DNA from: a virus | Lineage: Duplodnaviria; Heunggongvirae; Uroviricota; Caudoviricetes | Reading direction: 5' to 3' (one strand) | DNA length: 64,000 nucleotides | Virus record (IMG/VR): IMGVR_UViG_3300031555_004037 | In this document: positions 13,013 to 63,667 of the stretch, piece by piece | Layout: each line of letters begins with the position of its first letter | Numbering within the stretch: position 1 is the first letter of the stretch | The notes under the pieces: generated by a model | The model's input: the letters and a program-made list of their open reading frames with translations, nothing else | Told to the model about the DNA's origin: nothing | Databases searched by the model: none | Translations under genes and position numbers: made by a program

Positions 13013-13032
13013 ATAAATTTTTATAAAACTGT

Positions 13033-13060
13033 ATACAAACAGATTAAAAAGTGTTATAAT
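13033..13060 (+). promoter_or_regulatory. sigma-A-like promoter (ATACAA -16- TGtTATAAT)
   Basis: -35-like ATACAA 13033-13038; extended -10 GTGTTATAAT 13051-13060; upstream of RNAP beta-like gene. Confidence 0.45.
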
Positions 13061-13096
13061 AATTTATAATAATGTGAAAAAAGGAGAATAATATCT

Positions 13097-30378: not shown

Positions 30379-30537
30379 ATGAGAAGATTAAGAAATGAAT
30401 TAAAATCAATTAAATGGTTAAAGAGTGATGATGTAATGAAACAAACATTATTAGTGACAAGTGTGACAGTTTTAAGTGGTGCAATTCTATTAGGACTTGA
30501 CACTCTTGTACAATATATTATTGGAATTATCGTATAA
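30379..30537 (+). CDS. secE: SecE translocase subunit (52 aa; not in ORF track)
   Basis: MRRLRNELKSIKWLKSDDVMKQTLLVTSVTVLSGAILLGLDTLVQYIIGIIV ~ Bacillus SecE (K-x-x-W-P ... single TM ... LLD); RBS AAGGGAG; directly downstream of secY. Confidence 0.7.
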   Translation: MRRLRNELKSIKWLKSDDVMKQTLLVTSVTVLSGAILLGLDTLVQYIIGIIV

Positions 30538-30546
30538 GGAGATAAT

Positions 30547-31227
30547 ATGTTAATAACTGATGTTATGAAAATCTGTAAAATAAAATGGTTATACAAGGAT
30601 AATGAATTTTATTATTGTATGACCGACATAGTTACAGGTAAGGATATAATTATATATTCAAGTAATGACGAATATGATGAAGAAGATGATGAAGAAGATG
30701 AATATGAGGACGAATATGACGAAGATGAAATAGATATAGAAAATGTAGCTTGTTTTCGTGAAAGATTTTATGAAACATATATACAATGTTCAAAAACTTT
30801 AGATAATATAATACAATCTGTAATTCTTATTGGGGAATTTGAAGAAGATGTGGATTGTATTTATCTAAATGTAGCAAATCTTTGTATGTTTGCATTTGTA
30901 GATTGGATTTGTCACGCAGGATATTTAGAGTTAAATCATAGAAATCATACTGCCAAAATGAAAGATACAATTTCAAGAAAAACAATTACAGTAATGAATT
31001 GTTCAGATGAATGTGCTGAATCACTTCAAGATTTTGTAAATTTTATGGCAACAAATGAAAAAGTTGATTATTCTCTTAATGGTAAAAATACAATTTTATT
31101 TATGGGAACTAATTTAATGTATGACTTTGAAAAAATACAGTATGATAATATATCTAACGATTTGACTTTTGGAGATTTAGAACATCTTTATATGGAATTA
31201 TTTGAATATATGTTATATGATAAATAA
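30547..31227 (+). CDS. highly acidic hypothetical protein
   Basis: DEYDEEDDEEDEYEDEYDEDEIDIEN; between secE and the flotillin gene. Confidence 0.45.
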   Translation: MLITDVMKICKIKWLYKDNEFYYCMTDIVTGKDIIIYSSNDEYDEEDDEEDEYEDEYDEDEIDIENVACFRERFYETYIQCSKTLDNIIQSVILIGEFEEDVDCIYLNVANLCMFAFVDWICHAGYLELNHRNHTAKMKDTISRKTITVMNCSDECAESLQDFVNFMATNEKVDYSLNGKNTILFMGTNLMYDFEKIQYDNISNDLTFGDLEHLYMELFEYMLYDK

Positions 31228-31250
31228 AAAGAAAAAGGAGATTATTTAAA

Positions 31251-32780
31251 ATGAATGGACTAATTTCATTTGGAACAACTTTTGTTGTAATTGCTGTTAT
31301 TTTTGCAATTATTATTATTTTCACAAGTTATGTGAAAGCACCACCTGATAAAGCATATATTATTTCAGGTTTAAGAAGGAAACCAAAGATTTTAATTGGT
31401 AGAGCTGGATTAAAAATTCCGTTCTTTGAAAGAAAAGACGAATTGTTAATTAAGCAGATTTCTATTGATATTAAGACAGGCGATTATGTACCTACATTAG
31501 ATTTCATTGGTGTTAATATTGACGCTGTTGCAAAAGTCAAAGTTAGAACTGATGAAGAGGGTATTCAGTTGGCAATGAAGAACTTCCTTAATATGAGAGA
31601 AGACGCTATTATGAGTGCATTAGTTGATTCTTTACAAGGTAATATGAGAGAAATTATTGGTACTATTACTCTTAAAGATTTGTGTAATGATAGAAAGAAA
31701 TTCGGTGACGAAATTCAGAGTAAAGCACAGATTGATATGAATAATCTTGGTATTGAAATTATTTCTTGTAACATTCAGCACGTTGAAGACCAAAATGATT
31801 TAATCATTGCTTTAGGTCAAGATAATATGGCAAAAATTCAGAAAGATGCGTCAATCGCAAAGGCTATGGCTGATAGAGATGTTGCTATTGCACAAGCACA
31901 AGCAGAAAAAGAAGCAAATGACGCAAAAGTTCAATCAGATACAGAAATTGCTATTAAGCAAAATGAGTTGGCTATTAAGAGAGCAGAACTTAAAACTATT
32001 GAAGATGCTAAAAAGGCAGAGGCAGACGCTGCATATAAGATTCAAGAAGAAGAGCAGAGAAAGTCTATTGAGGTATCAACTGCTAATGCAGATATTGCTC
32101 GTCAAGAGAAAGAAATTGAATTAAAGAGAAAAGAGGCTGAAGTTCAAGAACAGGCACTTGACGCACAGATTAAGAAACAAGCAGAGGCAGAAAGATTTGC
32201 TAAACAACAAGCAGCAGACGCAGAATTGTATGAAAGACAGAGAAATGCAGAGGCAGAAAAGTTTGAATTAGAAAAACAAGCAGAGGCAAGAAAAGCACAG
32301 GCTGATGCAGACAGATATGCAAGAGAGCAAGAGGCAGAGGGTATTGCTGCTGTTGGTAAAGCAGAGGCAGAGGCTATTGCAGCTAAAGGTAAAGCAGAAG
32401 CAGAAGCACTTGAAAAGAAAGCCGAAGCAATGAAGAAATATGGACAAGCAGCAATTATTGAAATGATTGTTGATAAGTTACCAGATATTGCAGCATCAGT
32501 TGCTAAACCTTATGGAGATATTGATAACTTTACAGTTATTGACGGTGGAAATGGCGAGGGCAATAGTGTAGGTAATTTAGTACCACAGAATATTGCTAGT
32601 ACAAGAAAAGTAATCAATGATTTACTTGGTGTTGATATTGCTGATTTAGTTAGAGCAGATACATATGACGCTAAAGTAAATAAGAATGTAACAGTTAGTG
32701 GATTAGAGAATTTACAGTCTGTTACCGTAAATAATGAGTGTAATACTACACCAACAACTACAACAGTTGTAGAAGAATAA
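31251..32780 (+). CDS. flotillin-like SPFH/band-7 protein (FloT/YqiK-like)
   Basis: N-terminal TM; SPFH domain (YIISGLRRKPKILIGRAGLKIPFFE...); long Ala/Glu-rich coiled coil (AEAEA repeats) typical of flotillins. Confidence 0.8.
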   Translation: MNGLISFGTTFVVIAVIFAIIIIFTSYVKAPPDKAYIISGLRRKPKILIGRAGLKIPFFERKDELLIKQISIDIKTGDYVPTLDFIGVNIDAVAKVKVRTDEEGIQLAMKNFLNMREDAIMSALVDSLQGNMREIIGTITLKDLCNDRKKFGDEIQSKAQIDMNNLGIEIISCNIQHVEDQNDLIIALGQDNMAKIQKDASIAKAMADRDVAIAQAQAEKEANDAKVQSDTEIAIKQNELAIKRAELKTIEDAKKAEADAAYKIQEEEQRKSIEVSTANADIARQEKEIELKRKEAEVQEQALDAQIKKQAEAERFAKQQAADAELYERQRNAEAEKFELEKQAEARKAQADADRYAREQEAEGIAAVGKAEAEAIAAKGKAEAEALEKKAEAMKKYGQAAIIEMIVDKLPDIAASVAKPYGDIDNFTVIDGGNGEGNSVGNLVPQNIASTRKVINDLLGVDIADLVRADTYDAKVNKNVTVSGLENLQSVTVNNECNTTPTTTTVVEE

Positions 32781-32842
32781 AAAAATTATTAGTAGAGTAC
32801 GGTCTAAAAAGGTCGTACTCTATTATAATGTAAGGAGATAAT

Positions 32843-34651
32843 ATGTGGAAGAAAATTAGAGAATGGTTTAAAAAGAATAGGGGTTTAATTATTATTAGTT
32901 TTTTAGCCTCTATTATTACAATAACAATTTTACAAAATCGTCAATTATCTCAACAGCCTGAAATTAAAACCATTTCATATCAAGAATTTGAACAACTTGT
33001 AGAAGAAGAAAAAGTAGATAGTATCTATTATAATAAATCAAATGAATGGATGACTATTACTTTATTTAATGTTGAATCAAAAACATTAGATGCAAAAGAG
33101 AGATTAAATTATCAAGGATATACAAATGAAGATAAAAGAAATGTATCATATCCAGCATATGAAGAATTTAGGCACGATATGTTGAGTAATAATATAAATA
33201 TGATAATTGTAGACCCAAAAGTGTCTTTTATTGAAAAAGCATTATCAATCGTTTCTTTAATGTTTCCGTTATTATGGGTTTTTATTATTATGAGAATGTT
33301 AATTAGTTCTACTCAAGGAAATGTTAAAAGAAAAGAAATTATACAAACAAGTAATGTAAAATTTACTGATATTATTGGTCACGAAGAGATATTAGAAGAT
33401 GTTAAATTCATTACTGAACTTATTAAAAACCCTAAACTTGGAGATGATATAGGGGCAAAAGTTCCTAAAGGTATTTTATTAAGTGGAGAACCAGGTACAG
33501 GAAAAACTCTTATTGCAAAAGCAATCGCAGGAGAGGCAGGAGTACCATTCTTATATCAAAATGCGTCAAGTTTTATAGATAGATTTGTCGGTATGGGTGC
33601 AAAAAATGTTCGTGATTTATTTAAACTTGCAAAAGAAAATGCCCCTTGTGTATTATTTATAGATGAAATTGACGCTATTGGTGGAAATAGAAATAATGGT
33701 AAGGGTACATCTGAAAATGACCAAACAATAAATGCGTTATTACAAGAAATGGATGGTTTTACAGGTAGAGAGGGAATTTTTATAATTGCTGCTACTAATA
33801 GACCTGATATTCTTGATAGTGCTTTGGTTAGAGCAGGACGATTTGATAGACAAATTATTGTATCTGCCCCTAGAGATTGGGGAGTTAGAAAAGATTTATT
33901 TGAACATTATCTAAATAAATTTAAAGTTTTAGATGATGTAAATATAGTAAATTTAAGTAAACAAACAGCAGGATTTACTGGTGCTGATATTGCTGCAATT
34001 TGTAATGAGGCTAGTATTATTGCAGTTATGCAAGAAAAAGACGCTATTGATATGGATTGTATTGAAGAGGCTATTGATAAGAAAATCTTTAAAGGAAATC
34101 GTGCTAAAAAAGAGAAATACTTTGAAGATAAAAAGATTGTTGCTTATCACGAATCTGGACACGCTGTTATGAGTTATTTATTAGGAGAACCTATTGCTAG
34201 AGCAAGTATTCAATCTACTGTTTCTGGTGTTGGTGGTGTAGTATTTAATGAAGATAAAGATAGTGTATTTCAAACTAATATTGACTTTGAGAATAGAGTT
34301 TTGATATGCTATGCTGGTAGAGCATCAGAAGAAATTAAATTCAACTCTGTTACAACTGGTGCTTCTAATGATATTACACAAGCAACAAATGTTATGATGA
34401 ACTACATAGAAAAATTTGGTTTTGATAAAGAATTTGGTTTATTAGATATTGGTGTTTTAAGTAAGGAACATTTAATCAATAGTGAAGAAATTACTAATAA
34501 ATTAAGTAATATGTCTAGGAATTTATATGAAAAAAGTTTATCATTATTAAAAGATAACTATAAATTAGTAGAAACTTTGGCTAATAAATTATTAGATGTT
34601 GGAACATTATCTGGTGACGAAATTACAGAATTATTTAATAACTGTAATTAA
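32843..34651 (+). CDS. ftsH: FtsH-family membrane AAA+ zinc metalloprotease
   Basis: Two N-terminal TM helices; Walker A GEPGTGKT; Walker B VLFIDEIDAIG; second region of homology ATNRPDILDSALVRAGRFDRQ; HEXXH HESGHAV. Confidence 0.9.
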   Translation: MWKKIREWFKKNRGLIIISFLASIITITILQNRQLSQQPEIKTISYQEFEQLVEEEKVDSIYYNKSNEWMTITLFNVESKTLDAKERLNYQGYTNEDKRNVSYPAYEEFRHDMLSNNINMIIVDPKVSFIEKALSIVSLMFPLLWVFIIMRMLISSTQGNVKRKEIIQTSNVKFTDIIGHEEILEDVKFITELIKNPKLGDDIGAKVPKGILLSGEPGTGKTLIAKAIAGEAGVPFLYQNASSFIDRFVGMGAKNVRDLFKLAKENAPCVLFIDEIDAIGGNRNNGKGTSENDQTINALLQEMDGFTGREGIFIIAATNRPDILDSALVRAGRFDRQIIVSAPRDWGVRKDLFEHYLNKFKVLDDVNIVNLSKQTAGFTGADIAAICNEASIIAVMQEKDAIDMDCIEEAIDKKIFKGNRAKKEKYFEDKKIVAYHESGHAVMSYLLGEPIARASIQSTVSGVGGVVFNEDKDSVFQTNIDFENRVLICYAGRASEEIKFNSVTTGASNDITQATNVMMNYIEKFGFDKEFGLLDIGVLSKEHLINSEEITNKLSNMSRNLYEKSLSLLKDNYKLVETLANKLLDVGTLSGDEITELFNNCN

Positions 34652-34691
34652 AATAAAATAAAATAAAATAAAATAAAATAAAATAAAATAA
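34648..34691. repeat. (AAAAT)n pentanucleotide microsatellite, about 8-9 units
   Basis: TAAAATAAAATAAAAT... fills the spacer between the ftsH stop and the RBS of the giant surface-protein gene. Confidence 0.9.
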
Positions 34692-34708
34692 GAAAGGGAA
34701 GGTATTTT

Positions 34709-37700
34709 ATGAAAAGCAAAAGATTAAAAACTCGAATTTTGGCATTATTTTTAACTATGTTGCTTGTTACTAATTCTCCATTAGTTGCTATGGCTGAAAA
34801 TAATCCATCATTTGTAGAAGACGAAATAGTTACTACCGAAGAAACAACTACAGAAGAAGTAACTACGGAAGAGGTAACTACGGAAGAAATTATAACAGAA
34901 GAAGTAACAACAGAGGAAATCACAACGGAGGAAATCACAACAGAAGAAGTTGTAACCGAAGAGATTACGACAGAAGAAACAACTACAGAAGATGTAATAG
35001 AAGAAATACCTATTACATTTAATCTTAATAGAAATACTTTAGTTGAATATTGTGTTCCGTCTGAAGTAATAACTAAAATTGAATCTACTACATTTACACA
35101 TCAAACAACAGAATATAATAAATATGAATTGATTACAGATAATGCAGTAGATAATAACAATAATGTTTGGTATGTTTATTCTGTTAAGAGTGTTTTAGAC
35201 GATGAAGTAATAACTTTAGGTAATGTTATATTCCCTAAATCAGTTAAAATAGAAGATACCTTAATTATTCCTGCGTCTGTAACAGATTCCGAAACTTATT
35301 CAGTATATGGTGTAGGTAATAGTAGTTTTAAAGACGCAAATATAATTAACACATTAGAAATTGAATCTGGAATAAGGACTATTGAAGATTCAGCATTTGA
35401 AAATTGTGGTGTTTCAAACATAACATTATCAGATACAATTATATCTTTTGGTTCGTCAGTATTTGCTAATAATGATAATCTTACATCATTTACTTTTCCG
35501 ACAAATCCAGCATTTGTTGAAACAGGTTATAAAGTTTTATATGATTGTAATAATTTAACATCAATTACATTAGGAGAGAATATTAAAGTTATTTCAGCAG
35601 AATCATTCTATCAATGTAATAAATTGACTAATGTAGTCATTCCAGACGGTTTACAAGCAATATTATATAGAGCATTTGCAAAAACTGCTATAACAGAAAT
35701 CAATTTAAAGAATATAACTGGATTAGGTGCTCAATCATTTGAACATTGTTATAATCTTGAAACTATTGATTGGGGTGCTTGTTTATGGGGTGGAAAGATT
35801 GATTATAGAACTTTCTATATGTGTAATTCATTAAAAGAAATCAATATACCTGATAATGTTGAGGTTGTAGGAACTGACGCTTTTAATGGTTGTACATCTG
35901 TTACAAGCATTGACTTGAATAATGTTATTCAAATTGAATATTGTGGATTTGCTAATACAGGTATTACTGAATTGACAATTCCTGAATCCGTTAAATCAAT
36001 GGGTGCATTTTCATTTGGTAATACCACAAATCTTGAAACTGTAACATTTAAAAATGATATTAGAATTTATATTAGTGATGATTCAGCACCAAGTAAACAA
36101 TTATTTATAGTATTTGGTAAATTAACATATAATGAGCCTAGTGATACTTGGAATAATGACGGTGGTGCTTGGAAAAATGATGTTATTAAAAAAATAATAA
36201 TAGATAATGAAAATATTACAGATTGTACTTTTGTTCCAAATGGAATGTTTCAGTATATGGGAATTGAAGAGGTTATTCTTTCTGATAATATTTCCACATT
36301 AAATTATCAAGCATTTTTTGATTGTAAAAATTTAAAGACTATTAAAGCAAATAAATTAAATGCAATTCAAGATTCAGTATTTCAGAATTGTACTTCATTA
36401 GAAGAAATAAATCCAACTGACGATGTAAAAATTAACTTTCCAGATACACTTTATTGGATAGGTACTAATGCCTTTTTTAAGTGTAGTTCATTAGGAGATG
36501 TTACATTAGATAAAAACATTTTCCATATTGGTAATAGTGCTTTTTATAACTCTGGTATTACTAATCTTGTGATTGGTAATAATGTTACTGAAATCGGTTC
36601 TTCTGCATTTAAAGAATTAGTAAATTGTGAAAGCATATATATAGATGTTGAACCGTCTTTAGTAGAATATAGAGAATACGGAACAATGTTTTGGGGATGT
36701 ACTTCATTAGATACTTTAACTATTGGTAAAAATGTAACTACTCTTGAACCAAATTGTCTACAAAATATGGTCACAAAACATCTTATTTTTGAAGAGGGTA
36801 GCACAATTACTGAAATACCAAATCATTGTGTTTATGGAAATGCTAATCTTGAAAGTGTTGTTTTACCAGAAAATTTAATAACAATTAGTGAAGAGGCATT
36901 TCAAGCCTGTTATTCTTTAAAAAGTATTGAATTACCAAATACAATTACTACAATTAAAAGAAATGGTTTCTTTGGATGTCATTCACTTGAAACAATAACT
37001 GGTTTAGAGAATGTTGAGTATATTGGTAATCACGCTTTCTTTAACAATATAAATCTTAAAGAAGTATATATTGGGGAAAATGTTAATTATTTAGGTGCAG
37101 CATCATTCTTTAATACTTATTCACTTGAAAAAGTTACTATTGATAATAAGTATATGATTGATGAAACTACAGGAGAAACTATTTGTAAAACAAGTGAAAC
37201 TCAAACTGAACCACAAGTACAAAACTATCTTACTAGAGTATTTGGTAGAGATGATAGAAATTTTGACCATAATGGTTTAGCATCACATTTAAACTTTAAT
37301 AAAGAAAATTGTACACCACAACATTCATATTTTGAATTAATAATTACTGATAAAGTAGCACAATTACAAGATTATGAGTGTGAGGGTATGTATGTAAGTA
37401 AAGTTACTATTCAAGATAATGGAAAACTTACTGAAATTCCTTATATGTGTTTTAGTAATTGTGAATATTTAGAAACAGTTAATTTAGGTACAATAAATAA
37501 AATTGATAAATACGCATTTACTTGTTGTACAAGTCTAACTGAAATTGAATTACCAATGTCTGTAACTAATGTTGGAGAATATGCTTTTTCTGGTTGTGAT
37601 TCACTAGAAGAAATATATTTATGGAATCCTGATGTTAAAATAGAAAATTATGAGGGTAGTGAATTAAAACACGCTACTGAAATAGTAAATGGTGGTTCAA

Positions 37701-49352: not shown

Positions 49353-51833
49353 ATGTTAGATTTAATTGCAAAAAACAAAGAAATGTTAGATGCAAAAGCA
49401 TATAATATAGCAGACACTCGTTTAATGATGAGAATTGCAAGTCTTAAAACTATAAATGATTATGATTTGTATTTAATTGCGTGTTGTTTATGTAATTATG
49501 ATATTGAAGAAAAATCAGATGCAAGAGAACTTCGTATGGAATATTTCCTTAAAACTAATAATGGTTCTATTGTTGGATTTGAACACGGAGAATCTGATTA
49601 TGGTATTGTTGGAAAATCTGATATTAAATGTACTAATACAGGTAATGTAAATAAATTTGGTTTATATGAATATGAAATCAATGTAAATAATAAAGACCTA
49701 GTTTCTGATTTATGGGAAAAGAAACCAAAGGATTGTCTTAAATATGTGGATAACAAAACCTATGAAGATAAACTTATTGTTTCTATTAGTAAATCTCAAT
49801 TAGATAATTTTATGGCTATGTTAGATGAATTAGTTATTGATTATGAAATTTCAGATTTACAAAAGGGTTTAATTTATACAAATAAATCAGGTAATGAATT
49901 GATTGATATTTCTACCTTAGATTTACCTTTTGAACCATATCAATATCAAATAGAAGACGCTAAAAGATTAGTAAGTAAAAAAAGAGCATTACTAGGACAC
50001 GATATGGGCTGTGTATCAGGAAATAGTATAGTTCGTATTAAAGAAAGAGGAAAAAAAGCAACACGAGAAATAACCGTTTCTAATTTATTTAATTTGTTTG
50101 AAGAAGATAATACTATTCAAATTAAATGTTTAGTAAATGGAAGATTTGCTTATATGCCTATCAAAGCAGTAATTGATAAGGGTGTTCGTGATACTATTAG
50201 ATTAGTTACAAAAGATACTAGACTTGAATGTACTACTGACCACGAAATTTATACAGAAAAGGGTTGGGTAGAATCAAAAGATTTACAAGTTGGAGATTAT
50301 ATTGTTACAAATGAATTTGGAATTGATATACCTAATCATTTGATTAATTCGATTAAAAACAATATTGATGTTAATAAAACAATTAATGAAAACTGTGATT
50401 ATATATATACATCAAAAGTAGGTATTTCAGAAATTATTAGCATAGAAACTTGTGATACTCAACAAGTTTATGATATTGCTATTGACGATGTAGAAATTCA
50501 TAATTTTGTTTGTAATAATATTGTTGTTCATAATTGTGGAAAGACCTTAATTTCAATTTTAATTGGTCAAAGTTTAGATATGCCTAAATTAGTAATTTGT
50601 CCAGAGTCATTAAGATTAAATTGGTTAAGAGAAATTAAACAAGTTAAAAATGACGCAGATGTACAAATTTTATTAAGTAATGAAACACCTCATTTTGGAG
50701 AAGATTGGACAATAGTTGGTTATCAAACTGCAAGTAAATTTATTGATAATTTAATGAAATTTGAGTGTATCTTTGTAGATGAATGTCACAACTGTAAGGC
50801 TGTAAATAATTGGGGAAAACCGTCAAGTAAGAGAGCCGATGCAGTAATTACATTGGCAAATAATGCAGAGTATTGTTATTTATTATCTGGTACTCCAATG
50901 CCATCACATAATAAAGATTTATTCAATATTCTTAAAATGTTAAAATGTGAAGCATTTGATTTTAATAATAAATGGGCATTTAAGAATTATGCAGATAAAT
51001 ATTGTGACCCTAAAGAAACATATTTTGGTATGGACTATTCTGGTAATAGTAATTCAGATATGTTACACGGATTATTAAATAAACTAATGATACGAAGATT
51101 AAAGAAAGATGTATTACCACATTTAACAAAGCAAAGACAGTTTATTCCTATTGCACCAAAATTCAAAAAGGAATATATGGATATTGAAAAAAGATTATAT
51201 TTTCCTGAACCAGACGATACTTATATGGGATTGGCTATGACAGGAAGAAAATTATCTAGTCAATATAAAGTACAAACTGCTATTGAATTAGCAGAATCTT
51301 TAATTAATTCTGATGAAAGTGTAGTTATTGTTACAAACTTTATTGAAACAGCAGATATATTAAAAAATCATTTTAAAGATAAGGCTTGTGAAATTCGTGG
51401 TGGTATGAGTGATAAAGATAAGCAAAAAGCCATTGATGATTTTCAAAGTAAAAAGAAAACTGTATGTATATTAAATATGATGGCTGGTGGTGTTGGTATT
51501 ACTTTAACAGCAGCACATACAATGATAATGGTTGATTATGCTTGGTTGCCATCAGATATGACACAGGTAGAAGATAGAATTTGTCGTAGTGGTCAGACAG
51601 AGAATTGTATGATTTATTATATTTATTGTGAAAATTCTATTTTAGATAATATATTTATTGAGATGATTTCTGATAAATCAGCAAATATAGACGCAGTTGT
51701 AGATAATGTAGAAAACACATTTAATTTAAGTGAGGAAAAGTTAGCCAATTCAACTTATATTGATTTACTTAAATCAAAGATTAAAGAAACTAAACCAAAG
51801 GCAAAGCGTGGCAGAAAAAAGAAGACTGAATAA
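49353..51833 (+). CDS. SNF2/Rad54-family helicase with a mini-intein inside the Walker A motif
   Basis: Host motif DMG|CGKT split by the intein; DExH box VDECHNCK; motif VI QVEDRICRSGQT; remaining helicase motifs intact. Confidence 0.8.
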   Translation: MLDLIAKNKEMLDAKAYNIADTRLMMRIASLKTINDYDLYLIACCLCNYDIEEKSDARELRMEYFLKTNNGSIVGFEHGESDYGIVGKSDIKCTNTGNVNKFGLYEYEINVNNKDLVSDLWEKKPKDCLKYVDNKTYEDKLIVSISKSQLDNFMAMLDELVIDYEISDLQKGLIYTNKSGNELIDISTLDLPFEPYQYQIEDAKRLVSKKRALLGHDMGCVSGNSIVRIKERGKKATREITVSNLFNLFEEDNTIQIKCLVNGRFAYMPIKAVIDKGVRDTIRLVTKDTRLECTTDHEIYTEKGWVESKDLQVGDYIVTNEFGIDIPNHLINSIKNNIDVNKTINENCDYIYTSKVGISEIISIETCDTQQVYDIAIDDVEIHNFVCNNIVVHNCGKTLISILIGQSLDMPKLVICPESLRLNWLREIKQVKNDADVQILLSNETPHFGEDWTIVGYQTASKFIDNLMKFECIFVDECHNCKAVNNWGKPSSKRADAVITLANNAEYCYLLSGTPMPSHNKDLFNILKMLKCEAFDFNNKWAFKNYADKYCDPKETYFGMDYSGNSNSDMLHGLLNKLMIRRLKKDVLPHLTKQRQFIPIAPKFKKEYMDIEKRLYFPEPDDTYMGLAMTGRKLSSQYKVQTAIELAESLINSDESVVIVTNFIETADILKNHFKDKACEIRGGMSDKDKQKAIDDFQSKKKTVCILNMMAGGVGITLTAAHTMIMVDYAWLPSDMTQVEDRICRSGQTENCMIYYIYCENSILDNIFIEMISDKSANIDAVVDNVENTFNLSEEKLANSTYIDLLKSKIKETKPKAKRGRKKKTE
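50010..50534 (+). mobile_element. mini-intein (175 aa, no endonuclease domain) in the SNF2 helicase P-loop
   Basis: Begins CVSGNSIV, block B TTDHEIYT, ends VYDIAIDDVEIHNFVCNNIVVHN followed by +1 Cys (CGKT); excision would restore DMGCGKT. Confidence 0.75.
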
Positions 51834-52736: not shown

Positions 52737-53861
52737 GTGATTAAGGGAATTATTAAAATGATTATTGTTGCCTTAATATTTCTAGGATTATTATGGTTAG
52801 GCGGGTACTCATTTTCATCTTTTCAACATTCAATAGACCTTAAAAATCCAGGAGAGGTTTATGAGCCATTAATAGATGAATTACCCGATTTGCCTAATGT
52901 AGATGTTCCAGATTTACCAGATGTGGAAGACCCATTAGTATCAAATGATGATAATAATTCAGAAGTTGCATCTGATACAGATACAAATTTACCAAATGTA
53001 GATATTCCAGATATTAGTGATTATCCTACTGAATTAGAGCCAGTAGATGTAAATTTACCACAAGCAGGAAAAGGCGAGTTAAGTGAAATCGAATTATCTA
53101 CTACAAGAAATATTAAATTAACAATAAATGGACAATCAATAGAATTAACTTCTACAACTACTGCAAAATTTGTTAAATGGTTAGCAACAAATTATAATGA
53201 AGACGAAGAAGTTGAATTTGAAGAATTAGCACCTATTGATGAAGAAACAAGTAGTGAAGAAACTAAAAATCAAATAGAATATGAAACTGTATTAACCTCA
53301 AAAGAAGATTTAGATACAATAGTTGCTACAATAACAACTGTTGAAAAATTAGAAGAATTAGATGGTTATGATAGAAATGAATATGAAAAACCAGTACAAT
53401 CTTATGAATTAAATGGGGAAACATATAATAGAAATGATTATTCTTGGAAGAATAGTGAATTTTTAATTAGTGAAGAACCATTTGAATATATTTGTCCTTA
53501 TACAGGAGAAACAATTACTGATGAAAGTAAATTAGATTTTGACCATATTGTTCCTTTAAAATCTACATATTTAAGGGGTGCTGATAAATGGACACAAGAG
53601 CAGAAAAATGAATATGCTTATGACCAATCAATAGGTATAGATGTATTAAATTCTGCAAATAGAAGTAAATCAGATAAAGGTCCTACTGAATGGTTGCCTA
53701 CTGAAAATATAGAAGATTATTGTTATAGTTGGATATATATTTGTAGTAAATATAATTTAGTTATGACCGAAGAAGAATTAGAAATTTGTATGGATGAGAT
53801 AAATACAGCATTAAACAATGGAGAAACAATTCAATTATTAGGAATTGTAAATATACAATAA
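52737..53861 (+). CDS. membrane-anchored protein with C-terminal His-Me finger (DUF1524/HNH-like) nuclease domain
   Basis: N-terminal TM; acidic Pro-rich linker; LDFDHIVPLKSTY...NSANRSKSDKGPTEW matches the D-H-x-x-P ... N ... K-x-D-K pattern of DUF1524-type nucleases. Confidence 0.4.
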   Translation: MIKGIIKMIIVALIFLGLLWLGGYSFSSFQHSIDLKNPGEVYEPLIDELPDLPNVDVPDLPDVEDPLVSNDDNNSEVASDTDTNLPNVDIPDISDYPTELEPVDVNLPQAGKGELSEIELSTTRNIKLTINGQSIELTSTTTAKFVKWLATNYNEDEEVEFEELAPIDEETSSEETKNQIEYETVLTSKEDLDTIVATITTVEKLEELDGYDRNEYEKPVQSYELNGETYNRNDYSWKNSEFLISEEPFEYICPYTGETITDESKLDFDHIVPLKSTYLRGADKWTQEQKNEYAYDQSIGIDVLNSANRSKSDKGPTEWLPTENIEDYCYSWIYICSKYNLVMTEEELEICMDEINTALNNGETIQLLGIVNIQ

Positions 53862-54958: not shown

Positions 54959-56053
54959 ATGAACAAAGAACAGTATATTGAAGCGATTAAGCAGTTAAAT
55001 TATTACACAAAGAAATATGATGAAGGTAATCCAGAAATCTCTGATGAAGAGTGGGATAATTTATATTTCAGTTGTATTGAATTTGAAAATGAAACAGGTT
55101 ATATTGACGAAAATTCTCCGTCAGCAACAATTCAGTTTGATGTGGTAAATTCTTTAAAGAAAGTAACACATTCACATCCTATGTTATCATTGGATAAGAC
55201 CAAAGATGTTAAGGAAATTGAAAAGTTTGTAAAGAAGAGTCCTTGTATTGTTATGGCAAAAATGGACGGACTTACTTGTTCTTTAACATATAAGAATGGA
55301 AAGTTAGTTTCAGCAGAAACTAGAGGTAATGGTGTTGTAGGAGAAGATATTCTTCATAATGCAAAGACTATTAAATCTATTCCACAGACTATTGATTGTT
55401 TAGATGAAATTATTATTGACGGAGAAGTAATTTGTACTTATAAGGACTTTGAAGAGTTTTCTAATGAGTATAAAAATCCTAGAAACTTTGCATCTGGTTC
55501 AATTAGATTAATTGACCCTAATGAATGTGCAAAGCGTAAGTTGACTTTTGTTGCTTGGGATATTATTTCAACTGATGTAGATTTTACTGAAAAACTTTCA
55601 ATGCTTAACAAGTTTGGATTTGTTGTAGTACCTTATCAGGCTGTTGTTATGGATAATCTTGAAAAACAGCAGAAAGAAATGAAAGATTATTGTGCTACAA
55701 TGAGTTATCCTATTGACGGACTTGTGTATCGTATCAATGACCAAAAGGTATGGAATGAGCAGGGAAAAACAGAACATCATTTTTGTGGTTCATACGCATT
55801 TAAGTTCTATGACGAAATGTATGAAACCACTTTAATTGATATTGAATGGTCTGTTGGTAAAACTGGTTTAGTAACACCAGTAGCAATTTTTGAACCTGTT
55901 GAAATTGACGGTACAACAGTACAGAGAGCGTCACTTCATAATCTTACTATTATGGAAGAAGTTCTTGGCACACCTTATGTGGGTCAGAAGATTTGGGTAT
56001 TTAAAGCAAATATGATTATTCCACAGGTAGCAAAGGCAGAGAAAATTTCATAG
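54959..56053 (+). CDS. ligA: NAD-dependent DNA ligase, N-terminal fragment (adenylation + OB domains only)
   Basis: KxDG adenylation motif AKMDGLTCSL; OB-fold end NMIIPQV ~ LigA GDVIPQV; ORF stops exactly at the OB/Zn-finger junction. Confidence 0.8.
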   Translation: MNKEQYIEAIKQLNYYTKKYDEGNPEISDEEWDNLYFSCIEFENETGYIDENSPSATIQFDVVNSLKKVTHSHPMLSLDKTKDVKEIEKFVKKSPCIVMAKMDGLTCSLTYKNGKLVSAETRGNGVVGEDILHNAKTIKSIPQTIDCLDEIIIDGEVICTYKDFEEFSNEYKNPRNFASGSIRLIDPNECAKRKLTFVAWDIISTDVDFTEKLSMLNKFGFVVVPYQAVVMDNLEKQQKEMKDYCATMSYPIDGLVYRINDQKVWNEQGKTEHHFCGSYAFKFYDEMYETTLIDIEWSVGKTGLVTPVAIFEPVEIDGTTVQRASLHNLTIMEEVLGTPYVGQKIWVFKANMIIPQVAKAEKIS

Positions 56054-56059: not shown

Positions 56060-56395
56060 ATGGAAATTATGAAAATACATCCAACAAAACAGAAAGTAAT
56101 TGATAGTATTATAACTTTTATTAGTCAATATGATGAAATTACAAAGATGGTTATTTTTGGAGATGTATTAGAAGAGAATATTTCCGAAGATACTTTTATA
56201 GATATTGCAATCAAAACAATTACAGAAGAATTAGCATTAGATGATGAATTTGCTTATAATATTGTAAAAGAGATTGATGATATTACAGACGGAAAATTTA
56301 GTTTTATCATAATGAATGAACCTAATATTAGTTCTAATACAATGGAATTAATTGAAAGGGGAATTACTGTTTATGAAAAGGCAAAAGAAATCTGA
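56060..56395 (+). CDS. nucleotidyltransferase-fold (MNT-like) protein inside the ligase split
   Basis: MVIFGDVLEENISEDTFIDIAI resembles the Pol-beta NTase hG[GS]...D-h-D-h motif (degenerate). Confidence 0.35.
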   Translation: MEIMKIHPTKQKVIDSIITFISQYDEITKMVIFGDVLEENISEDTFIDIAIKTITEELALDDEFAYNIVKEIDDITDGKFSFIIMNEPNISSNTMELIERGITVYEKAKEI

Positions 56396-56849
56396 TTTAG
56401 AATTAAAAGAACAAGGACTACTTTTAATACGAAATGGGTTAAAGGCTTATGAAATTGGAGAGCCTTTACTTACAGATTATAATACTAAAGAAGAAAAAAC
56501 AAAAGCAGATAGTGCTAATAAAAATTGGGGTTGTTATATGACACAACAATCCATTGAATTAATTATAAAGGGTTTAATTAAGTATTATGGTTGGAATTTT
56601 AGAGATGGTCATTTTATTAGTGGTAATGCTAAAATTCTATCTGAATTATCAGAAAGAAATTCCATCTTACGACAATTAGATGATACCCTTTATACACTAC
56701 AATCTAAATTTAGTTATGTCTTATATAAATGGGCTACTATTGGTAGATATGTTGATTTATATGTTTATGCTAAAAATATTGAAACAGCATTAGAACTAAA
56801 TAAAGATTTATATGATTTTATTCATAGAAATCATTTATTAGATGAATAA
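56352..56849 (+). CDS. hypothetical protein overlapping the NTase-like gene (possible HEPN-like partner; start may be 56373)
   Basis: 23-44 nt overlap with upstream ORF; C-terminal FIHRNHLLDE; pairing by analogy to MNT/HEPN modules, weak. Confidence 0.3.
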   Translation: MKGELLFMKRQKKSDLELKEQGLLLIRNGLKAYEIGEPLLTDYNTKEEKTKADSANKNWGCYMTQQSIELIIKGLIKYYGWNFRDGHFISGNAKILSELSERNSILRQLDDTLYTLQSKFSYVLYKWATIGRYVDLYVYAKNIETALELNKDLYDFIHRNHLLDE

Positions 56850-56914: not shown

Positions 56915-57706
56915 ATGAATTTTTTAACCATTCCTAATGAATGTCCTATTTGTGGGGCAACATTGATTAGAGAGAAAAAGAATAAATCAGAAATGTTGAT
57001 TTGCCCTAATTCTAATTGTGGTTGTAAATTAGAGGGTAAATTATTAAATCTCTTTGGTACTAATGGATTAGATATTGAATCTATTTCAGTTAAAACTGTA
57101 AATAAGTTAATTGAATTAGGTTGGCTTACAAAAATGAGTGATGTATTTAGTCTTAAAAATCATAGAGATGAATGGATTAATATTGACGGTTTTGGAGAAA
57201 ACTCCGTTGATAAAATTCTTGAAGCACTTCCAACATCCATTGAATTATGGAGAGCAATCGCAATTTCTGGAATTTCAGGAATTGAAAAGGCAACTGCAAA
57301 AGTAATTGCAAAGGAATTTAAGGATTGGAAAGATTTTAGAAATGCCATTGATACTAATTATGATTTCACTAGAATTTCTGGAATTGGTACTGTAACTGCT
57401 AATTCAATTTTAGAATTTGATTATACTGAAATTGATGATGTTATGTGCTATTTAACTATAAAAGAAGAAGTTGTTGGTGGAAAATTAGATAATCAATCAT
57501 TCTGTATTACAGGTAAGTTATCTATGAAGAGAGATGACCTTGTAAAAATTATTGAACAGAATGGTGGAAAATTTGCATCTGTCAATAAGAATTTAACATA
57601 TCTTATCTGTAATGATAAGGACTCAAATTCTGGTAAGTCTAAAAAAGCAAAGGATTTAGGAGTTACTGTTATTACCGAAGATGAGTTTATGGACTTAATT
57701 AAATAA
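56915..57706 (+). CDS. ligA: NAD-dependent DNA ligase, C-terminal fragment (Zn finger, HhH, BRCT)
   Basis: Starts at Zn finger CPICGATL...CPNSNCGC; HhH region; BRCT FCITGKLSMKRDDLVKIIEQNGGKFASVNKNLTYLICND. Confidence 0.75.
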   Translation: MNFLTIPNECPICGATLIREKKNKSEMLICPNSNCGCKLEGKLLNLFGTNGLDIESISVKTVNKLIELGWLTKMSDVFSLKNHRDEWINIDGFGENSVDKILEALPTSIELWRAIAISGISGIEKATAKVIAKEFKDWKDFRNAIDTNYDFTRISGIGTVTANSILEFDYTEIDDVMCYLTIKEEVVGGKLDNQSFCITGKLSMKRDDLVKIIEQNGGKFASVNKNLTYLICNDKDSNSGKSKKAKDLGVTVITEDEFMDLIK

Positions 57707-57719: not shown

Positions 57720-57750
57720 GGTGTATTGATTAATTTCGATACACCTTTTA
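57720..57750 (+). terminator. rho-independent terminator
   Basis: GGTGTAT...ATACACC then TTTT. Confidence 0.6.
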
Positions 57751-57775
57751 TTATGGAATAAAAAGGGGGAAAATT

Positions 57776-58177
57776 ATGAGATTGTATAATTATACTTCAT
57801 TAAAAAATAGAGAGGCTAAAATTTATAATGTTGGTGGTTATAATTTAGCAGGTGGTATGTCTATTGAATTTTTAAAAGTAGTAGGACCATTTGCAGGAAT
57901 TGGAATTGTTTTAGGTATGATTTTAGGACTACCATTTGGTTTTAGTTTTTTCAATGTATTTAGTGAAAACTTTCATTGGCAATGGACAGTATTATGGTTA
58001 GCATTAGGTATTGGTACAGGTTGTTGTTTATGGTATATTCAATTTGCAGGTTATAGATTATATCAATATTTAGCAGCATATTTCAAACCAAAGAAAGTAT
58101 ATATGAATGATTTTAGAACTACAGAGTTTAAATTAACAACAGTAAAATTTAAAGGATTTGTGAAAAATATTTTATAG
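57776..58177 (+). CDS. small membrane protein (2-3 TM)
   Basis: Hydrophobic helices FAGIGIVLGMILGLPFGFSFF and VLWLALGIGTGCCLWY. Confidence 0.45.
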   Translation: MRLYNYTSLKNREAKIYNVGGYNLAGGMSIEFLKVVGPFAGIGIVLGMILGLPFGFSFFNVFSENFHWQWTVLWLALGIGTGCCLWYIQFAGYRLYQYLAAYFKPKKVYMNDFRTTEFKLTTVKFKGFVKNIL

Positions 58178-58187: not shown

Positions 58188-59492
58188 ATGGCTAAAAAAG
58201 ATACAGCACCAAATTCAAATACATTAAATCAAAATAATATAAGTATTATTGGAGATAATATATTATTTAATAATGGTGTAATTACAGCATTTTATATTAT
58301 ACCATTAACAAATTATTCTACTGCATCTCCACCAGGTATTCATAATTCAGTTGAAGATTTAACTAATATGATTACTAACTTAACAACAAATAATCCTAAT
58401 TTAACTTTTACTATTGAAAGAATTGAAAAGGTTATTAAGGCAAAAGATGTTTTAAATAATTTAATAGAAACTATAAATATTTATAGACCTGATTATGAAA
58501 TGCCACCTGAATTTACTAGAAATGTAAAAGATGACATTCAATCATATTGTATGTTGGGGATTGATATTCAGCAATCTACTGTTACTGATGTTGAAGATTT
58601 AACTCTTATGGACACAGTTAAAGCAGTAACAAAACAAATGGCTAATTCATTTGCAGGTTTGGGTAATATGAAAGCAGACCCAGAACAATTACTTAAAATT
58701 GAAGAGAATATTTATAGAACTATTAACTATAAATGTTTAAGAGCATCTAAAGAATTAGTATTTTATAATTTTGTAAGTAAGGTATTTCCTTGTTATGAAA
58801 TCTCTTATGATAAATTATCATATATAAATGAAAAATCATTTGAATCAATTATGGGTGCAGTTACACAAACTGTTTCAGATAATTTTGGTTGGTTTGAAAT
58901 GCACAATGAGGGTATTGATATTTTTGGATTAGACCCACAAACAACTTATGGTTGTATGTTAGATGTAAAAGCATTTCCACCACAAATTAGTACAACAAAT
59001 TTCCCTATGGATTATCCAAATGTTGTAACTACAATAAATTGTATTAAGAAAGAAGACGCAATTCTTAAATTAAAAAGAACTAGAGCAAGTGATAGATATG
59101 AGCGTGACCAAGCTATTGAGGCTGGTGCTGAAATTGAACAAGTAGAATCTACACAAGCAAATATTGATATTGCTACTTATGCTATTGAGGGAATTGAACA
59201 AGGCGATATATTATGTAATTTTAATACAAGTATGTTAGTTTTTGGTTCAACAAAAGAAGAATTAAAGCAAAGAGTTATGTCTATTATTACAAGTTGTAAG
59301 GATAGAAATATTTTAGTATCTAAATCTTTAACTCAAGCATTAGATTTCTTAAATAATTATATCAATAAGAAACCAAAGAAATATGACCATATGACAAATT
59401 TAATGTTTCCATTAAGTTTCCAACAAAATGCTGGTGCGACAGTAGGAGATATTGATAGTATTTGGTCGCCATCTATAGGAGAAGATTTATAA
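58188..59492 (+). CDS. hypothetical protein upstream of secretion ATPase
   Basis: 434-aa ORF, RBS GGGGGTAAATTATG; no motif recognised. Confidence 0.45.
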   Translation: MAKKDTAPNSNTLNQNNISIIGDNILFNNGVITAFYIIPLTNYSTASPPGIHNSVEDLTNMITNLTTNNPNLTFTIERIEKVIKAKDVLNNLIETINIYRPDYEMPPEFTRNVKDDIQSYCMLGIDIQQSTVTDVEDLTLMDTVKAVTKQMANSFAGLGNMKADPEQLLKIEENIYRTINYKCLRASKELVFYNFVSKVFPCYEISYDKLSYINEKSFESIMGAVTQTVSDNFGWFEMHNEGIDIFGLDPQTTYGCMLDVKAFPPQISTTNFPMDYPNVVTTINCIKKEDAILKLKRTRASDRYERDQAIEAGAEIEQVESTQANIDIATYAIEGIEQGDILCNFNTSMLVFGSTKEELKQRVMSIITSCKDRNILVSKSLTQALDFLNNYINKKPKKYDHMTNLMFPLSFQQNAGATVGDIDSIWSPSIGEDL

Positions 59493-59495: not shown

Positions 59496-60698
59496 ATGAA
59501 AATGCTTACTATATATTATTATAGTAAGCATTACTATTTAGAAAGGAAATTTTTTAATATGGCTATTAAATTAAACTTAAATGAGAAAAAAGAAGAAAAA
59601 GTAAATAATAATGAAGATATTAAATCTTTATATAGACAAAATATGTCTATTGACGATTTACTTATTTTTACTACTGAACATAATTGTTCTGACTTATATA
59701 TTAAAGTTTTTGAACAGCCTTATATTTCTCGTTATGGTAAAATCATAAAAGTTCCTTGTCAACCTATTACAAAAGATACTTGGGCTAAATTTTATGATTC
59801 GTATATATTAAACGAGTTAAATGCAGGTTATGTTAGACAAAAATTATTAGATACCTCTGTTTCTATTAGAGTTCCAGAAGATAGTCCTAATTATGGTAAA
59901 TATCTAAATAATTGCTATCGTTATAGAGTTTCTTTTGGTTTTTCAGAAGAAAGAAATATTGCTACTTTCCGTATGATTAAACCAGAAATGCCTACTTTCG
60001 ATACTATTAATTATAATCAAACTTGTGTTGAAGCACTTAAAGTGGCTTATGCAAAACCGTCTGGAATTATTTATACTACTGGACCTACTGGTTCTGGTAA
60101 ATCAACTACTATGGCTGCTTGTATAAATACTTTTACTCAACCATCTAATATTCTTGATAATAAAGTATTGATTACACTAGAAGACCCTATTGAAAATGTA
60201 TTTGAATGTACTGATAGTGTTAAAATCAATCAAAAAGAATTAGGTAAGGATTTTATTTCTTTTGATATGGGTATTAAAGCAAGTTTGCGTGAACACCCTA
60301 ATATGATTATTGTTGGTGAGTGTAGAGATAAAGAGGTTATTTGTGCTGCTATTGAGGCTGCTCGTACAGGACATATATGTTCTACAACTTTCCACGCATC
60401 TGATGTTGGTGGTACTATTAACCGTTTATTATATCATTTAGATAATGATAGAAATTTATCTATGGACTTAATTTTACAGTTGAATATTGTATTATCACAG
60501 AAAATGATTAAACAAGATAATGGATATTTAGTAGATACTCAATTTTTATTATTTGATGATGAAGTAACTAAAAGATTAGTTGAAATTATTGAATTGCCTG
60601 ATGCAAATATTGCAGTTGAAATCAATAAATTAATTGCTGACGAAAGATTACAAGCAAAAGGTGTAGTTAAAGATTGGGATTATAAAGAGTTACATTAA
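59496..60698 (+). CDS. PilT/VirB11/GspE-family secretion (type IV pilus-type) ATPase
   Basis: Walker A TTGPTGSGKSTT; Asp box ITLEDPIE; Walker B MIIVGECRD; His box GHICSTTFHASD. Confidence 0.75.
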   Translation: MKMLTIYYYSKHYYLERKFFNMAIKLNLNEKKEEKVNNNEDIKSLYRQNMSIDDLLIFTTEHNCSDLYIKVFEQPYISRYGKIIKVPCQPITKDTWAKFYDSYILNELNAGYVRQKLLDTSVSIRVPEDSPNYGKYLNNCYRYRVSFGFSEERNIATFRMIKPEMPTFDTINYNQTCVEALKVAYAKPSGIIYTTGPTGSGKSTTMAACINTFTQPSNILDNKVLITLEDPIENVFECTDSVKINQKELGKDFISFDMGIKASLREHPNMIIVGECRDKEVICAAIEAARTGHICSTTFHASDVGGTINRLLYHLDNDRNLSMDLILQLNIVLSQKMIKQDNGYLVDTQFLLFDDEVTKRLVEIIELPDANIAVEINKLIADERLQAKGVVKDWDYKELH

Positions 60699-60717
60699 TA
60701 TTAAGGAGATTTATATA

Positions 60718-61230
60718 ATGATATTAATTTTAATTGGAAATTTATTTTCATTTTTAGGTAGTATATGTAGTTTTTTATCAACTAAAGTCAAAACATATAA
60801 AATGACTTTAATAATTCAATCTTTAGATGCAACATTTTTTGCATTATCTTCAATATGTTTAAAGGGCTATAGTGGAATAATTGTAAATTGTGTAGCAATA
60901 GCAAGAAATCTTAGTTGTGCGTTTTTTAACTTAAACAAATATACTAAAATTGTATTTATAGGTTTAACTGTTATATTAGGCTTAATATTTATGGATAAAA
61001 CAATTTATGGATTTCTTCCAATAATTGCAAGTTCTTATTATGCTTTTGTTATGTTAAATACTAATGACGTATATAAGTTGAAAAAAGCATTAATGATAAA
61101 TAATTTATTATGGTTAATATACTCTATAATTATATTAGATGTTGTGGGCACAATATTTAAAATATTATCTATTATATCGTGTATTAAATATATTTCAAAA
61201 AAGGAGAAAATAGAAGATGTCAACAAGTAA
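60718..61230 (+). CDS. polytopic membrane protein (5-6 TM)
   Basis: 170 aa, mostly hydrophobic helices; immediately downstream of the ATPase. Confidence 0.5.
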   Translation: MILILIGNLFSFLGSICSFLSTKVKTYKMTLIIQSLDATFFALSSICLKGYSGIIVNCVAIARNLSCAFFNLNKYTKIVFIGLTVILGLIFMDKTIYGFLPIIASSYYAFVMLNTNDVYKLKKALMINNLLWLIYSIIILDVVGTIFKILSIISCIKYISKKEKIEDVNK

Positions 61231-61774
61231 TTCAAAATTTTTAGACTCATTTAGAGCATTAGAAACAGAGTTAAAATGTGAAGATAAAACAATACTAGAT
61301 TATGAAAATTCATTAGATGGCATTGACCAAGAAAGAATGAAAGTTTGTAGAATTATGAGAAATTATATTGCACATAATGATGCTACATTTTTAACACCTA
61401 GTAATGAACAGATTAAATTTTTAGAAACTCAAGTTTCTAATATTTTAAAATCTGCAAATACAGTAAAGAGTGAAATGAAGAAAATCAAATTAGTAAAAGA
61501 AACTGAATTGATTAAAAATCTTATTACGATTATTGATAAAAATGGATTTGTACCATTAGAATTAAAAAATGGTGGAATTTATTTAGTAACAAAAGATATT
61601 TTAGTACATCAATTAGCATTGGGTAATAAGAAAATTGTTATACCAACAAGATTACCTAAATATCAATATGTACATAAAGATATGAGATTAGATAAAATTA
61701 CTCATAATAATATTTATATTGTTACAGATAATGGTACGGATAATGGTAATTATTTAGGCATATTAAGTATATAG
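61217..61774 (+). CDS. hypothetical protein
   Basis: 185-aa ORF overlapping upstream gene by 14 nt. Confidence 0.4.
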   Translation: MSTSNSKFLDSFRALETELKCEDKTILDYENSLDGIDQERMKVCRIMRNYIAHNDATFLTPSNEQIKFLETQVSNILKSANTVKSEMKKIKLVKETELIKNLITIIDKNGFVPLELKNGGIYLVTKDILVHQLALGNKKIVIPTRLPKYQYVHKDMRLDKITHNNIYIVTDNGTDNGNYLGILSI

Positions 61775-62917: not shown

Positions 62918-63667
62918 ATGAAAAGAAAATTAGTAGTAACTTTATTAGCATTAACATTAGTAACCTCATTAGTAGGTTGTGGTGATGGAGTATCATCAAA
63001 TAATGTAGGTCATCAAGATATTCTTGAACAGGTTGAAAATGGAGAATATGTAGCACCACCTACAATGGAAGAAATTGCATCTGACCAAGATGTACCAAGT
63101 GTATTAACAAATGAAATGGGTTGGGTTATTGAATCTGCAAACCTTGAAGATTGTGATGAATCAATTAAGGCATTAGTAAAAGATGTATCTTCCGAATATG
63201 CACCTTATTTATATGTGGGTTATACCGTAGAAGATAATACTATTAAATATGCTTTTAGTGGTTTTAAGGGCGACCAAAAATGTGCAATTTTTGTAATTCA
63301 AAGTACCGATAATAAGTTGACTTATGAGTATGATGATTATTCAGAGATTTTTGAAATTTTAGCACCTGCTGGACCTACAAATGAACTTGAACCTACACCT
63401 GCTGACCCTAGTACATTGATTACTGAACCTGGTTGGGAACCTGGTCAGAATAATTCAGAAGATGCGTCTGATACTGATGCAGTAGAAGATAATTCAGAAG
63501 AAACAACTGATGAAGAAACAGAAAGTTCTGATACAGAAGAAACTGATAGTGAAAATGTAGAACCATCAGAAGAAACATCAGATAGTTCAGAAGAAACAGA
63601 AGAAAATTCAGAAGATGTATCTGATAGAGTTGGTAGTTTAAAGAATATTGATAAGAGAGTTGGATAA
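62918..63667 (+). CDS. lipoprotein with very acidic C-terminal tail
   Basis: Lipobox LVTSLVGCGDG; C-terminal Glu/Asp/Ser/Thr-rich stretch. Confidence 0.5.
   Translation: MKRKLVVTLLALTLVTSLVGCGDGVSSNNVGHQDILEQVENGEYVAPPTMEEIASDQDVPSVLTNEMGWVIESANLEDCDESIKALVKDVSSEYAPYLYVGYTVEDNTIKYAFSGFKGDQKCAIFVIQSTDNKLTYEYDDYSEIFEILAPAGPTNELEPTPADPSTLITEPGWEPGQNNSEDASDTDAVEDNSEETTDEETESSDTEETDSENVEPSEETSDSSEETEENSEDVSDRVGSLKNIDKRVG

Follow-up and report, generated by a model that had tools for sequence, protein, structure and literature searches.

The question raised by this locus is which machine a PilT-like secretion ATPase may serve in an element catalogued as a virus (IMG/VR record IMGVR_UViG_3300031555_004037), of which a stretch of 64,000 nucleotides, hereafter the window, was analysed. 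The first-pass annotation had pointed to an ATPase open reading frame (ORF) at 59496-60698 with four signature boxes and to membrane proteins on both sides of it at 57776-58177 and 60718-61230. All of these exist exactly as described, and both flanking products are membrane proteins, the former having two hydrophobic helices. The 434-aa ORF at 58188-59492 had been passed over, and it is the most informative gene of the cluster, encoding a stand-alone homologue of the VirB4 N-terminal domain (VirB4N). The window encodes, in this order, a TcpE-like (VirB3-like) small membrane protein, VirB4N and a PilT/DotB-type ATPase, and the order recurs in all related loci that span the three positions. It is considered probable, though with room for doubt, that the triad forms one conserved membrane-anchored motor derived from a type IV secretion system (T4SS) of Gram-positive type, the PilT/DotB-type hexamer being used in place of VirB4's own ATPase. 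What is new is the combination of parts, each of which is a member of a known family; the pairing of a VirB4 N-terminal domain with a T2SSE-family ATPase was not found described in the literature, and VirB4 and PilT are absent from two reviews of jumbo phages.

Identity of the three proteins

The VirB4N gene lies on the plus strand at 58188..59492 and its 434-aa product is without a P-loop or ATPase domain. The protein has a faint Pfam CagE_TrbE_VirB match, and PF03135 matches 8 of the 28 family members. The relationship with VirB4 surfaced only when structures were compared and when 1.84 billion proteins were searched with the family profile. When the AF2 model (pLDDT 78, pTM 0.78) was compared with the PDB by Foldseek, the top 14 matches were all TrwK/VirB4 of R388 (E 1e-12 to 1e-9) and the next stood at E 0.09. 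The profile of 28 homologues found 55 proteins only among the 1.84 billion representatives, and matched residues 2-423 of a 781-aa VirB4 (P0357) with E 7e-27, while hhalign aligned the family with residues 4-423 of P0357 at 99.2%. In P0357 the region matching the whole VirB4N profile is followed by a VirB4-type AAA_10 ATPase domain at 442-723, and the best NCBIfam match of this protein is TcpF (TcpF/VirB4). The window protein has no AAA_10 match and stops at the domain boundary, and the Walker A motif is missing in 27 of the 28 family members. The Foldseek, profile and hhalign matches taken with the missing Walker A motif therefore identify the 434-aa protein as a homologue of the VirB4 N-terminal domain standing alone, and not as a VirB4. 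The identity to any real VirB4 N-terminal domain is only ~21%; searched against PDB sequences the profile gave at best a chance match to an ion channel (E 0.25), and against plasmids nothing was found. The C-terminal tail (GDxD..W.P.IGEDL) is disordered, nearly invariant and aligned with the linker preceding the ATPase domain in full VirB4. A readthrough fusion of VirB4N with the ATPase was also considered, the two genes being in the same frame in the window and in the related locus L006; this is not so in L008 and the candidate was rejected.

In Gram-positive conjugation systems the VirB3-like protein is TcpE. The TcpE-like gene of the window is present on the plus strand at 57776..58177, separated from the VirB4N gene by a 10-nt gap, and encodes 133 aa with a hairpin of two transmembrane helices (residues 30-51 and 68-103 of the AF2 model). 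The Pfam TcpE model matched 20 of 24 homologues of this small protein (best E 2e-8). The family profile in turn matched the small proteins placed directly upstream of a full VirB4 (L009, E 9e-11) and upstream of a split VirB4 (L024, E 2e-11). The fold search of the model, which is of low confidence (pLDDT 62), returned chance matches only (E > 2).

The ATPase is encoded on the plus strand, its longest ORF starting at 59496 (400 aa). Pfam T2SSE (PF00437), the profile proposed for it in the first-pass annotation, matched with 121.2 bits (cut-off 24.9; E 5.4e-35). The Walker A box GPTGSGKSTT, the Asp box ITLEDPIE, the Walker B box MIIVGECRD and the His box GHICSTTFHASD are all present, and the four boxes (GPTGSGKSTT, TLEDPIEN, GECRD, TGH..T..H) are invariant among 12 relatives of 53-79% identity. 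The NCBIfam scores were 183 bits for pilT_fam, 141 for TraJ, 141 for DotB, 115 for ComGA and 51 for VirB11. Every curated cut-off was missed, namely for the PilT/PilU model TIGR01420 (182.9 against 319.1), DotB TIGR02524 (140.9 against 463.3), TraJ TIGR02525 (141.1 against 368.3), VirB11 TIGR02788 (50.6 against 250) and TrbB TIGR02782 (47.1 against 305), so that the protein is not assignable to one named family. By its sequence the ATPase is a divergent member of the PilT/PilU/DotB/TraJ subgroup of type II/IV secretion ATPases. The earlier description as a PilT/VirB11-family protein closest to PilT thus holds for the type II/IV subgroup and for the top rank of pilT_fam, but not for VirB11, and the PilT cut-off itself is not reached.

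These scores bear on the explanation that the ATPase is a phage-borne PilT acting on type IV or competence pili of the host, for example to retract or block them and so exclude other phages or DNA, its neighbours being functionally unrelated. Such a protein would need no pilus genes of the element's own, pilT_fam is the best NCBIfam model at 183 bits, and PilT structures are a close second among the PDB sequence matches, where DotB 6geb (5.7e-35) is followed by PilT proteins including 5fl3 (1.6e-31). The score nevertheless remains under the PilT cut-off of 319. In the plasmid search the nearest homologues were DotB (31% identity over 91%), TraJ (28%) and PilT (33% over 78%), and the full-length coverage is better with DotB/TraJ (91-93%) than with PilT (78-83%). 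The C-terminal motif of PilT is AIRNLIRE. No motif of this type is found in the ATPase, the aligned C-terminal helix reading DEVTKRLVEII with EVTKRLVE at the corresponding place. Moreover, the ATPase gene always follows the TcpE-like and VirB4N genes across identities of 36-54%, in tight or overlapping arrangement, which is unexpected for unrelated neighbours. An action on host pili is hence judged unlikely, and the motor formed with the two upstream proteins is preferred.

The relatives of the ATPase are 374-388 aa long and their alignment begins at the second in-frame methionine of the window ORF (M22), while AGAAAGGAAA stands 9 nt upstream of the ATG at 59559. On this alignment and this ribosome-binding site the true start is probably 59559 and not 59496, giving a gene of 59559..60698 and a product of 379 aa. 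The spacer between the VirB4N gene and the probable start is predicted to fold into two RNA hairpins (59501..59562, plus strand; dG -20.4 kcal/mol, z -4.4, 0 of 200 shuffles folding as well). The second hairpin covers or pairs with the ribosome-binding site of the ATPase, and translational control of the ATPase is therefore possible.

Inteins were observed inside the Walker A loop (GPTGSGK / intein / STT) in two ATPase homologues, P0112 and L018 (9039-11120), one being a mini-intein of ~150 aa and the other ~1 kb. The presence of inteins in the P-loop of two lineages is typical of conserved, needed sites, and together with the invariant boxes it suggests that the ATPase is under purifying selection.

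Conservation of the cluster and its relatives

The loci spanning all three positions are L006/L007 and L008 (Logan/ENA contig families) and L014-L019 (six IMG/VR contigs), and the related contigs bearing the triad are 130-467 kb in length. The gene order is kept in all of them although the identities fall as low as 36% for the TcpE-like protein, 39% for VirB4N and 54% for the ATPase. The intergenic gaps range from -1 to 66 nt, stop and start overlapping in L017; in L018 the ATPase is interrupted and lies ~1.7 kb further downstream. The genes flanking the triad vary from locus to locus. In the window, a terminator-like GC-containing hairpin followed by TTTTATTATG is present at 57720..57745 (plus strand), in the interval from the ligase gene, which ends at 57706, to the TcpE-like gene, and it is followed by a strong ribosome-binding site, AAAAGGGGGAAAATT-ATG, at 57761-57778. 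The transcription unit probably has its upstream boundary at this hairpin. When GenBank phages were searched with the cluster at the nucleotide and protein levels, no true relative was found; what the ATPase matched were PilT/GspE genes of bacterial type, at ~30% identity, from records that are contaminated or metagenomic.

This conservation speaks to whether the cluster could be what is left of an integrated conjugative element, decaying and no longer functional. The set is indeed incomplete, lacking VirB6, VirB8 and VirD4 and having a truncated VirB4. Yet order and reading frame are kept clade-wide with no disrupted copies, the composition of the cluster is like that of the rest of the element, the catalytic motifs are invariant and VirB4N carries a conserved tail specific to its family, all of which makes decay highly improbable.

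Among the nearest relatives of the VirB4N family three states of the locus were seen. In the fused state (L009, the locus of P0357) a TrbL/VirB6 gene and then a TcpE-like gene precede a full VirB4 having both the N-terminal and the AAA_10 domain. In the split state (L024/L025, metagenomic contigs of 51% guanine plus cytosine (GC) content) the TcpE-like gene is followed by a VirB4 N-terminal domain gene (419 aa) and a separate AAA_10 gene (~360 aa), after which a TcpC/VirB8-like gene follows in L024 (L024 5133-9146). In the swapped state of the window clade the order is TcpE-like, VirB4 N-terminal domain and T2SSE ATPase. The simplest reading of this series is a split of VirB4, after which the gene of a PilT/DotB-type ATPase took over the position of the motor gene. 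For P0338 and P0342, intermediate members of the family, the contig stops right after the VirB4N gene. More distant stand-alone VirB4N genes are found in T4SS-like loci (L011, L012) along with TraG, TcpC, TrbL and lysozyme.

The series also bears on a decoy function, in which the ATPase-less VirB4N and a VirB3 mimic would enter a foreign T4SS, that of the host or of a rival mobile element, and block it, thereby poisoning conjugation. A VirB4-like protein without its ATPase domain has the shape of a dominant-negative subunit, and the element carries many conflict genes such as HEPN proteins and homing endonucleases. A decoy, however, has no need for a dedicated and catalytically intact ATPase, which is always present here with invariant motifs, and a mimic made to fit a foreign assembly would be expected to show more than ~21% identity to a real VirB4 N-terminal domain. 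Moreover, three T4SS loci that are ordinary in other respects (L011, L012, L024) have stand-alone VirB4N genes, whose products presumably do work there. The decoy function is accordingly regarded as quite unlikely beside a working motor.

A putative membrane-anchored motor

In the proposed machine a ring of VirB4N would be held to the host membrane, on its cytoplasmic face, by the TcpE/VirB3-like hairpin protein, and the PilT/DotB-type hexamer would dock below this ring. ATP hydrolysis would be supplied by this hexamer, whose gene stands where relatives have VirB4's AAA_10 domain or gene. A candidate for the docking peptide is the nearly invariant, disordered C-terminus of VirB4N, whose counterpart in full VirB4 is the linker that leads into the ATPase domain. 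During infection by this very large phage-like element the complex may act as a membrane motor, by which a macromolecule, either DNA or protein, would be moved or extracted. The anchoring and docking are modelled by analogy with two systems. In R388, VirB3 wraps around the VirB4 N-terminal domain and gives two transmembrane helices, and VirB11 binds VirB4 (PMC9259494); in Legionella, DotB docks on the VirB4 homologue DotO and the inner-membrane channel opens (PMC7029142).

The cluster was compared with known systems. It resembles TcpE-TcpF of pCW3, ORF17-ORF16 of Tn916 and VirB3-VirB4 in having a two-helix TcpE-like protein directly upstream of a VirB4-type N-terminal domain, and the closest full-length relative of VirB4N (P0357) scores best as TcpF and sits beside a TrbL/VirB6 gene; unlike them, the window VirB4N has no AAA_10 domain or P-loop, and no VirB6, VirB8, VirD4 or hydrolase stands alongside in the sequence seen. 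With DotB-DotO of the Legionella Dot/Icm system and with TraJ of IncI-type plasmids it shares the PilT/DotB/TraJ ATPase subgroup and the pairing of a PilT-like hexamer with a VirB4-family protein, DotB being the best PDB and plasmid match. DotO, however, keeps its ATPase domain and DotB docks on it, whereas the VirB4 ATPase domain is missing here; the scores lie far under the DotB and TraJ cut-offs (141 against 463 and 368), and the host range is of Bacillota type, not Proteobacteria. The PilT/PilU retraction ATPases of type IVa pili have the same T2SSE fold and four boxes, but the window cluster has no pilin, PilC or PilM-Q genes and its conserved partners are T4SS proteins.

The split VirB4 loci (L024/L025, L011/L012) are similar in having a separate VirB4 N-domain gene after a small membrane protein, and in L024 the next gene also encodes an ATPase of ~360 aa. 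They differ in that this next gene is the cognate AAA_10 domain, followed by TcpC, and in the GC content of L024, while L011 and L012 have the further T4SS genes named above. Among cultured phages, a T4SS-like module (gp153-gp156) was observed at 7773-13337 of the 498-kb Bacillus phage G (JN638751, L021). Here gp153 was found to be TrbL_4/VirB6-like, gp154 has 125 aa, gp155 is a compact 549-aa VirB4-like protein with a P-loop domain, annotated as VirB-like, and gp156 is a HerA/TraG-like ATPase. Among the viral structural matches of VirB4N, gp155 ranks second (E 2e-9). The early SPP1 proteins gp31.1, gp31.2 and gp32 have been proposed as a translocon (PMC6316719). Both modules, which consist of membrane proteins of Bacillota phages and VirB4/TraG-type ATPases, resemble the window cluster, but they keep FtsK/HerA/VirB4-type ATPases, whereas the window clade has a T2SSE ATPase and an ATPase-less VirB4N.

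Several points weigh against the proposed motor. The known contact of VirB11 is with the C-terminal ATPase domain of VirB4 (TraB residues 591-619; PMC9259494), and as this domain is absent here, docking of the ATPase on the N-terminal domain is without direct precedent. Taken singly, the window proteins are weak Pfam matches, the small membrane protein scoring 22.3 bits against TcpE (PF12648; cut-off 29.9) and VirB4N also falling under its Pfam cut-off. In the 64-kb window, and in related loci up to 6-10 kb from the triad, no gene was found for a VirB6/TcpH channel, VirB8/TcpC, a VirD4/TcpA coupling protein, a hydrolase or a relaxase. A translocon role is therefore left without a visible pore, most of each genome lying beyond the sequence read. 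The window holds no virion gene, so that the phage label rests on the jumbo-phage-type RNA polymerase, PHROG family matches and inclusion in IMG/VR.

The triad could also be self-sufficient, a minimal translocation motor of VirB3 anchor, VirB4 N-terminal-domain adaptor ring and PilT/DotB hexamer that moves the element's own DNA across the host membrane. It would either draw in what remains of a genome of several hundred kb once the earliest genes have been expressed, or pass phage DNA or protein on to neighbouring cells much as in conjugation. If this were true the VirB4 N-domain would be a general adaptor coupling unrelated hexameric ATPases to the membrane, but the chance given to it is small.

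The nature of the element is also in question, for instead of a strictly lytic phage it may be a megaplasmid or phage-plasmid capable of conjugation. The triad would then be the visible part of a full transfer apparatus, with the remaining genes outside the window. There is a precedent in the Hodors, megaplasmids of >300 kb with SecY/SecE/SecG and T4SS genes that were lately separated from 'huge phage' collections (PMC12934698). The lack of a virion gene in the window is in keeping with it, and so is the binning of some relatives as 'Bacilli bacterium' metagenome-assembled genomes; relatives are also listed in IMG/VR. Hodors, however, live in the human gut, have a GC content of 45-47% and possess an ordinary VirB4, whereas the element has 27% GC and is found in ruminant-type samples (the element or its relatives occur in goat and rumen-type metagenomes). 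The split RNA polymerase is nearest to jumbo-phage beta subunits, a phage-type primase, homing endonucleases and PHROG families are present, and no relaxase, VirD4, VirB6 or Rep/Par genes were found in the 64 kb or in the flanks of related loci. A megaplasmid or phage-plasmid thus appears improbable; identity with the Hodors was rejected on GC content, habitat and gene content. That the element is a huge phage is probable but not proven, and the membrane-anchored motor of three proteins remains the preferred reading of its cluster.

Genomic setting and significance

The membrane protein on the other side of the ATPase (60718-61230) belongs to the Imp-YgjV family (Pfam 65.7 bits), a family of the transporter-like PnuC/SWEET clan. 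It had been put forward as an adjacent polytopic partner, but other genes occupy its position in L006 and L008, and it is therefore not a partner of the ATPase. It is more likely a small-molecule transporter-type protein. Its candidacy as a platform (PilC/TadB/VirB6) was rejected because it is of a different family and is not conserved beside the ATPase. The first-pass annotation had also seen envelope machinery of a pilus-like, DNA-transport or Tad-like kind. An envelope machine of T4SS-like character agrees best with the DNA-transport option. No prepilin-type N-terminus was found in any of the six frames of the window, and no PilC/TadB-like protein among the window ORFs scanned or in related loci, which leaves the pilus and Tad readings without partner genes, and they were rejected. 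Lack of any partner platform or pilin gene had been expected to tell against a secretion role; literally no such gene was found, yet a conserved partner set of TcpE/VirB3-like protein and VirB4 N-terminal domain exists.

A 185-aa protein with an R-x4-H (HEPN-like) motif, CRIMRNYIAH, is encoded at 61217-61774, and it recurs within ~3.5 kb downstream of the triad in L006, L014, L015 and L016, past variable genes. The product of 52737-53861 has an N-terminal hydrophobic segment, and its C-terminal 100 aa are 41% identical to a GmrSD_C-domain gene that stands directly after VirB4N in L011 and L012. A known anti-phage defence system was rejected, as PADLOC gave no real match; its defence-system models returned only P-loop-level matches (E at least 1.6e-4).

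Almost every long ORF of the window lies on the plus strand, and neither Rfam families nor tRNAs were found in it. The 64-kb window carries genes for UvsX/RecA-like protein, DnaB, primase, gyrase, SecY, flotillin and FtsH. The RNA polymerase genes are split and beta/beta'-like (13097-16547); their Pfam matches are weak, and the nearest database matches are beta subunits of Vibrio, Erwinia and Salmonella jumbo phages. A set of envelope genes at 29023-39892 and 62918-63667 includes SecY (259 bits), flotillin/SPFH and FtsH, a 1727-aa BspA-type leucine-rich-repeat surface protein that begins with a signal and ends with an anchor, and a lipoprotein whose lipobox reads LVGC. An SNF2-family helicase with an intein (49353-51833; Pfam Intein_splicing at residues 242-394) and a GIY-YIG-type homing endonuclease (2416-3273; PHROG 314, E 7e-29), placed one gene downstream of the RecA/UvsX-like gene 816-2045, were also observed. 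The NAD-dependent DNA ligase is split into 54959-56053 (adenylation and OB) and 56915-57706 (HhH/BRCT), with a nucleotidyltransferase/HEPN pair (56060-56849) inserted between the two halves; the relative L008 has a single intact ligase of 635 aa, which both halves match end to end.

In this clade the VirB4 N-terminal domain persists as a separate protein, its motor domain having been swapped at the same gene position for an ATPase of a different superfamily, and the fused, split and swapped intermediates are still found in databases. If the three proteins form one complex, the VirB3/VirB4 N-terminal-domain anchor and the motor would be separable modules, and the cluster would provide a small three-protein system for studying how a secretion ATPase is coupled to the membrane. 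For a clade of phage-like elements from the animal gut about which little is known, the finding enlarges the gene set by a conserved, putative envelope machine.

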